Part shown: piece after piece, positions 53,088-59,477 of the stretch
How the letters are laid out: every line of letters starts with the position of its first letter
Numbering within the stretch: the stretch's first letter is position 1
From: a virus
Reading direction: 5' to 3' (one strand)
Length of the DNA: 64,000 nt
Virus record (IMG/VR): IMGVR_UViG_3300033146_003848
Span: 64,001-128,000 of that record
Program-made: the position numbers and the translations under genes
Notes under the pieces: generated by a model
Told to the model about the DNA's origin: nothing
The model's input: the letters and a program-made list of their open reading frames with translations, nothing else
Databases searched by the model: none

Positions 53088-53360
53088 TTAAATTGTTTCT
53101 AAGTCAAATTTAAGTGAAGTAGTGTTTTTTATATATTCATAAAATTTATACGACCCTGTTGATAGTAGAGACGATATTAATGATGATGATATTTCAATAT
53201 TACTTGTATCAATTAAAAACATGAATAATTGATACTCTTCTGTCTCGGTCAAATCAGTATCAGACTGAGCCAAAATCATGAGGGTTTGGGTAAGTGTGGA
53301 ATTGATAAAAAGTGATCTGAAGTCTTTTTCTGATACTTTACAATCGTTTATAATAATCAT
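53088..53360 (-). CDS. Cassette gene, paralog of 55184-55585
   Basis: EY.LF..LID and SYKFYEY.K....LKFD..TI shared. Confidence 0.75.
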   Translation of the reverse strand: MIIINDCKVSEKDFRSLFINSTLTQTLMILAQSDTDLTETEEYQLFMFLIDTSNIEISSSLISSLLSTGSYKFYEYIKNTTSLKFDLETI

Positions 53361-53663
53361 TTTCTTTTCCTGTTTTTAAAGTCTCTACTGACTAAAAAAT
53401 TAATAAGAACACAAACAATTAATATCAATTGTTTATAATACTAGTATAACACTTAAATGAGACCTTGTCAATTCCATTTCAAATTAATTTTATAAAAAAA
53501 AAGAAATATACTTACTTCAAATAGTCTCATATTCAATCGAGATCAAACGATATGGAAAAATGAATAGTAAAGTATATACTTGAAATAAAAAATGATTATT
53601 ATCAAAACACAATAGGTCTCAATGTTATTTTATTCAATCAATACCTTCCCTAATTTATATCGT

Positions 53664-53870
53664 CCATTTAGGACGGTTCCCAACCATAATAGGTCGTCAC
53701 TAAAGTAAAATTGAACCTCGATGAGAATTAATGATTCCCAAATAGGACGGTACAGAGACATTGACCTCGATAGGTCGTCACTAAAGTAAAATTGAACCTC
53801 GATGAGAATTAATGATTCCCAAATAGGACGGTACAGAGACGATTCGACCTCGATAGGGAATAGTATTATA
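53664..53870. repeat. Repeat block of the same family (two ~81 bp units)
   Basis: ataggtcgtcactaaagtaaaattgaacctcgatgagaattaatgattcccaaataggacggtacagagac occurs twice. Confidence 0.9.
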
Positions 53871-53875
53871 TAAAA

Positions 53876-53904
53876 AAAAGTAGTTGCTATTCGCAACTAC
53901 TTTT
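53876..53904 (-). terminator. Cassette terminator (potentially bidirectional)
   Basis: aaaagtagttgc-tattc-gcaactactttt; identical at 55137, 56342 and 57433. Confidence 0.88.
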
Positions 53905-53914
53905 TATCAAATAT

Positions 53915-54373
53915 CTAACGCTTCACAAGTTCTGCAATATTTTCTAGTTTTGAAAAATGTGACATCTCATCAAAATGTATATTCAATAGTGAGTTTGTGA
54001 TTAATAAAGCAATCTCTAAAGCATTTTGTTCCAGATCATCAAAATGATTTAGAATAAAATTTAAATCATCAAAACTTTCATATTCCAATGCTAGTTTTAA
54101 TTCTTGAATTCGAAATTTAAAATCTCTTTTTCCCAGTTCCTCTGCTTCGTCGGCAATTCCCGCAACATCAATTATATGAAAAAGAAATATTGCTTTTTCT
54201 TCAATTGAATATTCATGTTTTCTTGAGTCAATAAAAGCAAGCGTAAAATCAAAATCTTTTGTATACTCATCTATAGCATACAGTCTCTCTAATTCAGTAT
54301 CAAATTGTTTTTCAAAAGCAATGTGAAACAATTCATGATCAATTTCTTTTCCGAACACATTAATTTTTTTCAT
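53915..54373 (-). CDS. Acidic cassette gene, paralog of 57483-57953
   Basis: N.F...I...LFH..F...D, LFH..D..GI, LA.EY shared; start set by the conserved leader. Confidence 0.75.
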   Translation of the reverse strand: MKKINVFGKEIDHELFHIAFEKQFDTELERLYAIDEYTKDFDFTLAFIDSRKHEYSIEEKAIFLFHIIDVAGIADEAEELGKRDFKFRIQELKLALEYESFDDLNFILNHFDDLEQNALEIALLITNSLLNIHFDEMSHFSKLENIAELVKR

Positions 54374-54960
54374 GATAATTTTCCTGTTTTTAAAGTCTGT
54401 ACTGACTAAAAAGTTTAAAAACACAAACAAGCAATATCGATTGTTTATAAGTAACTATAACATAAAATAATTCCCGTGTCAATTCTATTTCAAATTATTT
54501 TAAATTAAAATTATTTTAAAGTAAAAATATTTTAAAAATAATAAAATGATATAATAATAAACAAAATAAACTTACTTCAAATAGTTCCATATTCAATCGA
54601 GATCAAACGATATGGAAAAATGAATAGTAAACTATATACTTAAAAAAAATCAATTATCATAACGAAAAAATAAAATAAAATTTGTCAATTTTATTCATTA
54701 AAATTAAAAAAAATAATTATAAATAATTATAAAATCACAATAGGCTTCTATATTATTTTATTAGATCGATACCTTCCCTAAATTTATAATTGAATTAAAA
54801 AAATGATTCATTTTGTTTCAATAATTATTTAAATCAATTCACTAAAGGGAATTTCCATCTTGCATTCGACCGTCCTATTCGGGAATTATATGTTCATATA
54901 GGTTTAAATCCATTTAGGACGGTTCCCAACCACGATAGGTCGTCATTTAAGTAAAATTGA

Positions 54961-55115
54961 ACCTCGATGAGAATTAATGATTCCCAAATAGGACGGTACA
55001 GAGACATTGACCTCGATGAGAAATAATGATTCCCAAATAGGACGGTACAGAGACATTGACCTCGATGAGAAATAATGATTCCCAAATAGGACGGTACAGA
55101 GACATTGACCTCGAT
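54961..55115. repeat. 3 x 49 bp tandem repeat
   Basis: acctcgatgagaa(t/a)taatgattcccaaataggacggtacagagacattg starting at 54961, 55010 and 55059. Confidence 0.95.
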
Positions 55116-55136
55116 AGGGAATAATATTATATAAAA

Positions 55137-56725: not shown

Positions 56726-57432
56726 GATAATTTTCCTGTTTTTAAAGTCTCTACTGACTAAAAAGTTTAAAAAAAACAAACAATCAATATCGATTGTTTA
56801 TAAGTAACTATAACACATAAATTTTCCCGTGTCAATTCTATTTTAAATTAATTTAAATTAAAACTGTTTTAATTCTATTTTATTTTATTCCATTTTAAAA
56901 CAATTAAAATGGAAACTGTTTTACTTTCATTTTAATGATACTTAAATAGTTCCATATTCAATCGAGATCAAACGATATAGAAAAATGAATAGTAAACTAT
57001 ATACTTAAAAAAATCAATTATCATAACAAAAAAATAAAAATAAAATTGTCAATTTTATTTTAATATTTGATATTTAAAATCAAAAAAATCTATTATATAT
57101 ACTATCGGGAATATATATATATTCAAAAAAAAAATCAAAAATTAAGTGAGATAAAATCAAAAAAAATCAAAACAAAAATACTTCTAAGTTTTCAAAAACA
57201 ATGTAGACATATCGGGAATTTCTTTGCGAAATGATACCCGCCCTCATTTCAATTAATGAAAATCAACCCTATCCTATTTCAAAAAAATATGAAACAAAAT
57301 CGGGAAGGTACCTGCCCTATAATATCTAAATACTCCCGAATAGGACGGTACAAAGTGAAAGTGAAAGAGAAAGCCAGATTTTCATTTTGAAGTCAATTCC
57401 GTTGTCAAAAAATTGACACTAGGAATACGATA

Positions 57433-57461
57433 AAAAGTAGTTGCTATTCGCAACTACTTTT
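57433..57461 (-). terminator. Cassette terminator copy
   Basis: Identical hairpin. Confidence 0.88.
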
Positions 57462-57482
57462 TGTCAAAATCTTGGAATTATA

Positions 57483-57953
57483 TTATTTTTTTAACATATC
57501 TAATCGTTTCAATTCAGATTCGATTTTATCAAACTCATCATTCGAAAATTTTCCGTTTCTGATAATATACTCGAGATCGTTTACATAAAAATTGTACTCA
57601 ACAGCAAGTTCAAAACTATGCATAGTAAAAAAATACTTTTTTGTTTCAATCATTTTTTCACTCATTTCATCAATTCCATTATTGTCGAGCATATGAAATA
57701 ACATTTCTTCATTATCTATATCTTTTGATATAGACATTAAAATAATTATAAACTCGCATTTTTTGGAATACGAAATTCCTTCATAATTATTATCATTTAA
57801 TTCAAAGATTTTATAAACATCATTATCATATTCTTTAATGAAAGAATCATGAAACAGTGCATATGGAATATCAATATTAAAGATATTGCACTTTTCACAA
57901 ACTGTCTCTTTTGTTGTTGTTGTTGTTGTTGTTGTTGTTGTTGATTTTTTCAT
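57483..57953 (-). CDS. Acidic cassette gene with poly-Thr N-terminus
   Basis: (TTG)11 at 57911-57943 encodes T10; paralog of 53915-54373. Confidence 0.75.
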   Translation of the reverse strand: MKKSTTTTTTTTTTKETVCEKCNIFNIDIPYALFHDSFIKEYDNDVYKIFELNDNNYEGISYSKKCEFIIILMSISKDIDNEEMLFHMLDNNGIDEMSEKMIETKKYFFTMHSFELAVEYNFYVNDLEYIIRNGKFSNDEFDKIESELKRLDMLKK

Positions 57954-58039
57954 GATAATTTTCCTGTTTTTAAAGTCTATACTGACTATTAGTTTTAAAA
58001 AGAAACTGTTTTAAACTATTTTAAAACAGTTTAAAAAAC

Positions 58040-58069
58040 AACTTGCAAGACTTTGAAGTCTTGCAAGTT
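58040..58069 (-). terminator. Long hairpin after 58080-58799
   Basis: aacttgcaagactt-tg-aagtcttgcaagtt; T-rich downstream on the minus strand. Confidence 0.65.
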
Positions 58070-58079
58070 TCAAGTAATT

Positions 58080-58799
58080 CTATAGTTGCACTATAGAATT
58101 ACTTCGATTAAGCAAGATCATTATGTCGTTTACTCTTGATGTTGCATTTTTTCCTTTTCTTATCTTAGTGTATAAGACATTTTTAAGAGTTCGGAACGCA
58201 AAAGAATTTGCATTATTTTTCTGATTTTTAGCAAAGTTATGAATTATAACAATACTATTTTTCGATAAATTTGCAACTGAAAAAATTCCAGATTCAGAAA
58301 GTGTAAATTTCAGATTCATATTGTTTGTTTTTATAATGTCTTGACTTTCTGCTAAAATTTCACTTTTCATAACTGAAGCAATAAGTATAGTACTTGCATA
58401 AACATAATTTAAGCACTTTTCTTTATAATTCAATAAATTTGCAGTTTTTTCGACTTTAAACTTTTTTCCATTTTGCATCGTGATAACTAATTTTCCAGTG
58501 ATAAAATCTGAATTATTTTTTATATCATGTTTTGTGCAAAATTTTTCCGACATAAAGTACTTTTCAAAATTCTTTACTGCATACAGTGACTTGAAACTTA
58601 AATTTTCTAAAAGTTTATATCGTTTTGTAGAATTCAAATTATCAAAAAATTGAGAAACTTTTTTCTTTTCAAGTTCAACTTCTTTGATTTTTTCGTCATT
58701 TTTTTTTTCAGTTTCTAAATTTGCAAGATAACTTGTTCTTTCTTTATCTGACAAATTAAGATTAAAATTGTTGTTTGATTTTTCTGTTAAATTTTTCAT
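58080..58799 (-). CDS. Basic Lys/Asn-rich protein, first gene of the leftward array
   Basis: 239 aa; promoter at 58936 and a variant leader. Confidence 0.7.
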   Translation of the reverse strand: MKNLTEKSNNNFNLNLSDKERTSYLANLETEKKNDEKIKEVELEKKKVSQFFDNLNSTKRYKLLENLSFKSLYAVKNFEKYFMSEKFCTKHDIKNNSDFITGKLVITMQNGKKFKVEKTANLLNYKEKCLNYVYASTILIASVMKSEILAESQDIIKTNNMNLKFTLSESGIFSVANLSKNSIVIIHNFAKNQKNNANSFAFRTLKNVLYTKIRKGKNATSRVNDIMILLNRSNSIVQL

Positions 58800-59477
58800 A
58801 AAATTTTCCTAATTTTTAAGTCTTATTTTGACTAAAATGTTTAAAAAAAACTGTATAACGATATTGTTATACAGTCAAGTAATTAAAAGAGCGTTGTTTC
58901 TTATAAAATAATAGCATATAATTTCCATTTAGTCAATTATTTTTTGCAATTTTTTTAAACTGTTTTGTAAGTAATTAAAATTACTACAAAATAAAATCAC
59001 TTTTATTTTTAATAAAATCAATTAAAAATAAATAAAAATGTCTTTTTTTAAAAAAAAACTAAATTTTAAATTTTAAAATAGAGAAAAAAATACTCTTTTT
59101 ATTTTTCTCACGACTAGAACTTGCAATATGAAACTATTGCTATTCGCAAGTATTCTGAAAAATTAAAAAATCTATTTCTGAAAAAAATCAATAAATAAAT
59201 TTTTCTGTAAAATTGCAACGCAAGCAAGTCAAATTTTAATTTTCTGAAAAAAGTAATATAAAACTATTAAAAAATGAAAAAGTTTCTTAAAATCAAATTT
59301 TGTTCGTTTTTGGAAAAGACAAAAAAAGACAAAAAAATTCATTTTTTCAAAAATTAAAACATCTTGTTTTTTTTCAAATTTCTTGAATTGTTTCAAAATT
59401 GATACAAAACTGTATTTTTTCGCTTTTTATATATAGACGAACTATTGACTTAATTTTTTTGAACGGTTACCAGGCGA

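Follow-up and report, generated by a model that had tools for sequence, protein, structure and literature searches.

An array of small genes in mosaic, near-identical non-coding frames within the putative early region of a metagenomic viral contig

The virus record IMGVR_UViG_3300033146_003848 of the IMG/VR database is a contig of 146,140 bp, of which bases 64001-128000, a stretch of 64,000 nucleotides (nt) referred to here as the window, were analysed; all coordinates are window positions unless marked as contig positions. Between positions 53088 and 58936, the minus strand carries an array of six small genes, designated A to F, five of which (B-F) lie in units of 1.0-1.2 kb that are built around long non-coding frames. 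This array is best read as an oversized variant of the promoter-stem-loop element (PeSL) cassette regions known from T4-type phages, and not as a new kind of system. With a probability of roughly 0.55, it represents a PeSL-like hyperplastic region within a leftward early block of a large lytic-type phage, which would have grown and been homogenised by homologous recombination among its own frames. An initial annotation of this DNA had proposed a recombination-driven cassette platform. The mosaic structure of the frames, the conflict between frame subtypes and cargo families and the sharp borders of the cargo genes bear out the recombination part of this proposal; however, the idea of a dedicated platform is not supported, since promoter and hairpin turned out to be a general module of the phage.

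The argument for exchange is based on a comparison of the frames with the genes that they surround. The four frames between genes B and F (554-810 nt) can be aligned over their full length; frames B-C and C-D are 90% identical over 346 nt (E 6e-126), and frames C-D and D-E are 83% identical over 831 nt. The paralogous cargo proteins share 34% identity in the case of D and F (E 1e-11) and 26% in the case of B and E (E 1e-9), and A and C are singletons. The initial annotation was thus right in describing near-identical frames around divergent cargo, which comprises two distant paralogue pairs and the unpaired gene C. As non-coding DNA that is up to 90-98% identical lies beside paralogous proteins at 26-34%, frames and cargo cannot be of equal age. 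Identity is also distributed in patches: frames B-C and C-D are 97-100% identical over the last ~250 promoter-proximal columns of the alignment and ~50% identical over the repeat block. Seventy-two of the 74 differences private to frame B-C fall into alignment columns 52-495, and nearly all of those private to frame E-F (35/37) into columns 465-886. Homology between units reaches 14-17 nt into the coding sequence and restarts 5-20 nt past the stop codon. Genes B and C have ATGAAAAAATCAACAAC (encoding MKKSTT) and one type of 3' flank in common, and genes D and E share ATGAAAAAAATTAA (MKKI) and another type of 3' flank. These frame subtypes (B and C versus D and E) track physical neighbours and conflict with the cargo families, which pair B with E and D with F; gene C is unrelated to B, yet it has the same frame type. 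Furthermore, the frames become degenerate towards the two ends of the array, into frame F-G on one side and into an AT-rich remnant with a TTGCGAATAGCAA fragment upstream of gene A on the other; such a pattern is expected if unequal exchange homogenises a tandem array. Taken together, this pattern indicates that the frames probably undergo ongoing homologous exchange with each other.

The array is embedded in a linear contig, which is estimated by CheckV to be ~65% complete and which encodes a DNA polymerase, both topoisomerase II subunits, an SbcC-like nuclease, a helicase, an RNA ligase and RtcB. Structural genes were not found on the 146-kb contig, and the best matches of its proteins in cultured phages share just 25-47% amino acid (aa) identity. 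The GC content is ~30% contig-wide and 22-27% over the array. As the initial annotation had pointed out, about half of the region is non-coding: coding density over 53088-58936 is 45.5%, the minimum of the contig, and a crude tiling of open reading frames (ORFs) over the whole contig gave values of 0.48-0.58 for the array versus a contig median of 0.91. The previously described unit length of 1.0-1.2 kb on the minus strand agrees with promoter-to-promoter spacings of 1142, 1211 and 1011 nt. All parts that had been listed for the units, namely promoters, ribosome-binding sites, terminator, repeat block and AT-rich spacer with its box, were found where they had been placed.

Gene A (58080-58799), the head of the array, encodes an orphan protein of 239 aa and is equipped with a variant promoter (-35 at 58936), a variant leader and its own, different terminator at 58040-58069. 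Gene B (57483-57953) encodes a protein of 156 aa, a paralogue of E, and has a leader and a ribosome-binding site, but no promoter of its own. In these respects, genes A and B deviate from the initial description of the units. The description of the cargo as mostly acidic is correct for B, C, E and F; the exceptions are A, which is basic with a pI of 9.7, and the near-neutral D. The N-terminus of B consists of MKKS followed by Thr10, and a perfect (ACA)11 run at 57911-57943 encodes these threonines; runs of this type are prone to slippage, and its length could vary. Frame B-C (56726-57482; 757 nt) contains a terminator at 57436-57458, a single TAGGACGG at 57341, an AT-rich spacer, a box at 56953-56977, a promoter at 56807-56835, the 5' hairpin and a ribosome-binding site. 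Its left half is a divergent variant, and its right half is ~98% identical to frame C-D. Gene C (56387-56725; 112 aa), which has no paralogue in the genome, is followed by frame C-D (55587-56386; 800 nt) with a terminator at 56341-56371, a 73-nt tandem unit containing TAGGACGG in 2.1 copies (56146-56300), an inverted copy at 56100-56122, the box at 55822-55846 and a promoter at 55665-55693. Downstream of gene D (55184-55585; 133 aa), a paralogue of F, lies frame D-E (54374-55183; 810 nt), in which the terminator is located at 55137-55165, the box at 54588-54612 and the promoter at 54454-54482; a 49-nt tandem unit is present in 3.2 copies (54956-55115), and an inverted copy at 54869-54889 forms a 135-nt hairpin. 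Gene E (53915-54373; 152 aa), the paralogue of B, is separated from gene F by frame E-F (53361-53914; 554 nt), which comprises a terminator at 53875-53905, 2.1 copies of an 81-nt tandem unit (53689-53857), the box at 53528-53552 and a promoter at 53443-53471, and which lacks the inverted copy and ~250 nt of spacer. Gene F (53088-53360; 90 aa), the paralogue of D, has no terminator after it and is followed by the degenerate frame F-G (52459-53087; 629 nt), which is ~55% identical to the other frames. This frame has retained a remnant of the terminator arm (AAGTAGT), one AAGGACGG at 53009 and a promoter (-35 at 52565) with the two-part leader.

The four promoters with -35 elements at 56835, 55693, 54482 and 53471 (minus strand) are of the form TTGACA-17-TATAGT/TATACT with a TG extension, match the consensus at 11 of 12 positions each and are preceded by phased 10-nt A/T repeats immediately upstream of the -35; a full consensus promoter of this array type is found before four of the six genes (C, D, E and F). 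The ribosome-binding site AACAGGAAAA (AGGAAAA type) is present in five copies at 57968, 56740, 55600, 54388 and 53374. The leader had been described as consisting of two hairpins. The first one, at the transcript start, is supported by its predicted fold (-9.2 kcal/mol, z -5.6); the second one, however, is not significant (-1.9 kcal/mol, z +0.6). The 146-kb contig contains exactly four copies of a 23-nt terminator core, AGTAGTTGCGAATAGCAACTACT, one behind each of the genes B, C, D and E; it is missing behind A and F, which agrees with the earlier observation of an identical terminator that is missing behind the last gene. The core has a predicted folding energy of -15.6 kcal/mol (z -7.9), whichever strand is considered.

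Promoter and hairpin are not confined to the array. Within positions 26000-59000 (~33 kb, both strands), 24 of the 28 consensus promoters are directly followed by a hairpin of -5 kcal/mol or stronger, with z scores of -2 or lower in 21 of the 28 cases; elsewhere in the contig, a hairpin is found at one of nine promoters. The hairpins form several sequence classes, and the class of the array contains a few covarying pairs, which suggests that the structure is kept and not one particular sequence. The full two-part leader is additionally present on the plus strand at 34259, 42231 and 46296. The promoter with its 5' hairpin is thus the general early-gene module of the phage and not specific to the array, whose own parts are the common terminator, the TAGGACGG block, a 55-nt region around a 25-nt box and the long AT-rich spacer. 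Outside of the array, two promoter-plus-hairpin modules at 50000-50062 and 50433-50495 are 100% identical over 63 nt, lie 433 nt apart and precede different small genes; they are a further pair of modules prone to recombination.

The PeSLs of T4-type phages, described for RB49/phi1, PST and nt-1 (Arbiol et al. 2010, PMC2839356; Comeau et al. 2014, PMC4122927), combine an AT-rich tract and a strong sigma-70-like promoter with a stem-loop and a Shine-Dalgarno sequence, the stem-loop of one subclass being located just downstream of the -10. They occupy the gaps between small orphan genes in hyperplastic regions, insulate transcription and recombine mutually; in RB49/phi1, the crossovers are located either in the stretch from the -10 to the ATG or within the AT-rich part, and a dedicated recombinase is not known (PMC2839356; PMC4122927). 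The array has all of these parts, from the AT-rich tract and the sigma-70-like promoter to the stem-loop and the Shine-Dalgarno sequence before the ATG. Moreover, its promoter-hairpin module recurs in many copies (24/28) in the early region and flanks small orphan genes, the units are insulated, the region is gene-poor and variable, and exchange would likewise proceed by homology without a known dedicated recombinase, which is read here from sequence footprints. The resemblance to T4-type promoter-stem-loop modules with much larger frames, which had been noticed in the initial annotation, is therefore borne out. However, there are also differences. The 5' hairpin of the array is AU-rich, whereas PeSL stems are frequently composed of polyG followed by polyC. 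PeSLs have been defined by indels between relatives and by mini-circles, whereas the array is known here from one sequence. PeSLs have been described from T4-type phages; the present contig carries replication and RNA-repair genes but no structural genes, and its matches in cultured phages are distant.

According to the explanation favoured here, the array would form the promoter-proximal part of a leftward early-gene block, in which each orphan gene would be an insulated single-gene unit composed of A/T tracts, an extended -10 sigma-70 promoter, a hairpin, a Shine-Dalgarno sequence, the coding sequence and a bidirectional intrinsic terminator. Growth of the array may have occurred by unequal homologous recombination between the repeated regulatory modules, and neighbouring frames would still be homogenised by gene conversion and unequal crossing-over, which would depend on the general recombination machinery and not on a dedicated recombinase. 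Because of this continuing homogenisation, the frames would remain 83-98% alike in patches, next to cargo proteins that share 26-34% identity or are unrelated. The homology of the frames would permit deletion, duplication and exchange of whole units, and the additional 400-600 bp per frame, i.e. the TAGGACGG tandem block, the 55-nt box and the AT-rich spacer, would be carried along.

Several points weigh against this explanation. With 550-810 bp, the frames are about ten times larger than a PeSL, which spans only the gap between stop codon and ATG, and they additionally contain a strong bidirectional terminator, a variable 21-23 bp tandem block, the 55-nt box and the long AT-rich spacer. The core of TAGGACGG and the 55-nt box are kept even in the most diverged copies, which speaks for selection acting on the frames in addition to homogenisation. 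Consensus sequences are the only basis for early timing and for the dependence on sigma-70. As the contig is only ~65% complete, the missing sequence might include a gene for a recombinase or a RecA-like protein. Finally, the searches described below yielded no related genome, so that no gain, loss or swap of a unit was seen.

The additional frame DNA suggests another explanation, according to which the frames themselves are the functional payload. The element ATRATTCCCRAATAGGACGGT, which is 21-23 bp in full, and the 55-nt box would then be kept by purifying selection, either as protein-binding sites (a roadblock or insulator, a titration sponge or iterons beside an AT-rich unwinding region) or as RNA-processing hairpins, and the cassette look would be a by-product of tandem duplication. 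Indeed, the core TGTACCGTCCT.TT.GG.A is invariant in all five frames including the two most diverged ones, and the contig contains 17 exact copies of the octamer, where ~1 is expected in 146 kb; all copies are non-coding and located within 47128-57341, and 15 of the 17 are on the plus strand. Outside of the array, a 117-nt mini-spacer (50557) and a convergent non-coding island (47128-47504) contain the element as well. Where inverted copies are present (frames C-D and D-E), they form hairpins of ~135 nt with terminal stems of 18-20 bp, which fold at -46 to -48 kcal/mol (z about -5). All four copies of the 25-nt box, at 53528, 54588, 55822 and 56953, have the same sequence, despite a distance to the promoter that ranges from 57 to 129 nt. 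However, only two of the four frames contain an inverted copy, and copy number and unit length vary: TAGGACGG is present once in frame B-C, three times plus one inverted copy in C-D, four times plus one inverted copy in D-E and three times in E-F, and the tandem units that carry it are 81, 49 and 73 nt long, with no significant fold of a single unit. Rfam 15 gave no match at the gathering score in the whole window or at E<=1 in 44000-60000, the element was not found as a repeated sequence in 401 sampled Bacillota genomes beyond chance-level matches, and there is no known binding protein. In addition, the identical tracts specific for particular pairs of frames are explained by conversion and not by selection. 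We therefore regard it as possible, though rather unlikely, that the frames as a whole are the payload. Their conserved cores, in contrast, probably have a function of their own, and the fact that half of the coding capacity of a 6-kb stretch is spent on frames argues that the extra DNA does something. It is a doubtful proposition that the oversized frames constitute a working DNA or RNA device undescribed in phage early regions, be it an array that binds a protein, as a roadblock, a sponge or origin-like iterons, or a site at which an unseen recombinase would act to move entire units.

Other roles of the repeat block have been considered. The strand polarity of TAGGACGG was initially taken as a sign of a function at the DNA level; this argument was withdrawn, as the plus-strand copies are all located downstream of minus-strand genes as well, and a role at the RNA level fits equally. 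CRISPR-like repeats were rejected, since the 49-, 73- and 81-nt units repeat as a whole at 97-98% identity without unique spacers. LexA, CtsR, cre and sigma-54 sites were dismissed by informal comparison with their consensus sequences. No conserved ORF is present in the frames, in which the 49- and 73-nt periods are not multiples of three, and no plus-strand promoter conserved across the frames was found.

The sharp borders of the cargo genes and the inverted-repeat hairpins of ~130 nt, which lie 3' of genes C and D and are close to attC sites in size, are reminiscent of integrons, in which single genes are likewise bounded by a repeated element able to fold. The inverted 21-23 bp elements might then act as attC-like sites for a recombinase encoded by the host or in the ~35% of the genome that is missing. 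The initial annotation had reported that no recombinase was visible, and this is true for the whole contig: neither tyrosine recombinases (PF00589, the family of IntI) nor serine recombinases (PF00239) gave a match in the 146 kb, and a RecA-family protein was not detectable in the contig either. Furthermore, the hairpin is found in two of the four frames only, the units carry their own promoters (full consensus before four of the six genes), whereas integron cassettes are promoterless, and the mosaic junctions are at no fixed site. The homology extends over the whole spacer of 550-810 nt and not just over a site, which suits homologous and not site-specific exchange. A dedicated integron-like system is thus quite improbable. 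The order of the cargo (family 1, an unrelated gene, family 2, family 1, family 2) suggests that a block of two units was duplicated, and plain, old tandem duplication followed by very fast divergence of the cargo would require no continuing exchange of frames. However, non-coding identities of 90-98% beside coding identities of 26-34% at the amino acid level are incompatible with divergence over equal times, and the relationships among the frames differ between their left and right halves and conflict with the cargo, so that no single tree fits; this explanation, too, is improbable. It had also been conceded earlier that the array might result from misassembly, i.e. that a repeat region of this metagenomic contig was collapsed or chimeric. 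This is highly improbable and the order of the units is credible, as exact repeats between units are no longer than 96 nt and all units contain unique cargo and many private substitutions; in addition, genes A-D were called identically by the IMG gene caller. The copy number of the 49-nt tandem unit is the only feature that might have been mis-estimated by the assembly.

Large phages of Gram-positive bacteria offer a further comparison. The Bacillus phage SPO1 contains a host-takeover module of 26 genes, which are clustered in the terminal region of its genome (PMC6873191, PMC10531801). The array resembles this module in its small, mostly uncharacterised early genes, in the host-type promoters and in its location on the genome of a large phage with expression signals in the style of Gram-positive bacteria. 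However, there is no sequence similarity, and the module of SPO1 is terminal, whereas the array is seen within a contig that represents a partial genome. Long near-identical frames between genes are not known from the SPO1 module.

The cargo proteins themselves provide few clues. None of the six has a match in Pfam or PHROGs, and ESM Atlas gave nothing usable for them. The structure prediction that had been recommended for the cargo did produce models, which are all-helical; however, they are of low confidence (AlphaFold pLDDT, the predicted local distance difference test, 47 and 53). An early anti-host role of the cargo can be presumed only from position, promoter type, small size and acidity. 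Protein E and the D/F profile retrieved only themselves from a set of 5.8 billion protein clusters, as did the B/E profile among 1.84 billion representatives, and proteins D and E have no match in IMG/VR. The sole outside homologue, found in the set of 5.8 billion clusters, is P0010, a protein of 104 aa, which is 77% identical to cargo protein C and is encoded on a 1,182-nt contig of NCBI origin. As called, P0010 begins at the residue matching M9 of C and lacks the frame-derived MKKSTTVT that is common to C and B, which fits a junction inside the first codons. No copy of P0010 was found in IMG/VR or in GenBank phage records. At the nucleotide level, a megablast search with the array yielded nothing among 50,697 phage records, and exact-motif scans with the box, the leader and TAGGACGG in IMG/VR and JGI metagenome contigs returned nothing or single chance matches in unrelated DNA. 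Clusters at 90% identity of the cargo, the polymerase, RtcB and other core proteins were all singletons. The nearest IMG/VR records, G002 and G005, share 15 and 6 ORFs with the contig, none of which belong to the early region, and contain no frame DNA.

If the favoured explanation is true, the modular shuffling of early genes via repeated regulatory linkers extends beyond the T4-type phages of Gram-negative hosts. Such linkers would then be able to reach ~0.5-0.8 kb and to gain extra conserved elements, at the cost of half of the coding capacity of a 6-kb stretch. The six orphan early proteins, which comprise two paralogue pairs and two singletons and would each come with an insulated expression unit of natural origin, would be candidates for host-takeover and anti-defence screens.

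Further repeats and non-coding islands are found in the surroundings of the array. Upstream of gene A, the divergent intergenic region of 1.1 kb that separates its promoter from rightward genes contains 5.1 head-to-tail copies of a 37-nt unit, CTGATGGATCTCATCCAGGATCCAGGGAATATTTTGG, with 97% identity (59478-59664); in its arrangement, this repeat looks like an iteron or operator array. Three copies of TTTTTCAGAA(A/T)A lie at 59145-59252 (minus strand) in very AT-rich DNA, likewise upstream of gene A. One of these copies, TTTTTTCAGAAAATT, shows a tentative resemblance to the CodY box, AATTTTCWGAAAATT. On the other side, two non-coding islands at 45680-46300 and 47060-47780 have a raised GC content (36-40%), share the motif GGTTTCCCTTAACC and do not match Rfam. 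The first one contains a consensus promoter at 46059, which is followed by ~200 nt without ORF or ribosome-binding site, and a short non-coding tandem repeat, (ACCAACCAATACCA)n, at 45818-45876. The second one is located at the junction of converging rightward and leftward gene blocks and contains three copies of TAGGACGG and a 49-nt internal repeat (47115-47163 and 47476-47523).

The contig is also depleted of certain short words. AGCT and GCGC are absent from the entire 146 kb, where ~390 and ~70 copies are expected, respectively. Within a sharp-edged zone of 11 kb (42862-53881), the words AGTT, AACT, AGAT, ATCT, AGCA and TGCT occur 13 times in total versus ~340 expected, and AGCC/GGCT and AGGT/ACCT persist. 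The right edge of this zone (53882) coincides with the terminator of gene E, so that frame E-F and gene F are inside, and frame E-F has substitutions at aligned positions where the other frames carry the depleted words. Counts over 53862-59463 show no purging of GG/CC (GG 55 versus 59 expected).

Some other genes encode proteins with recognisable features. At the right end of the contig (contig positions 136210-146083), three large paralogous proteins of 461-544 aa match HNH/homing endonuclease families of PHROG, and two further large ORFs are located beside them. Genes at 59913-60356 and 60515-61174 contain repeated C..C.FS motifs, and two small Cys-rich proteins encoded in the early region at 44716-45069 (plus strand) and 51888-52241 (minus strand) have repeated CxxC motifs and a common N-terminus (..YWQD.N.NKWSDCTEEEAI.KS..).

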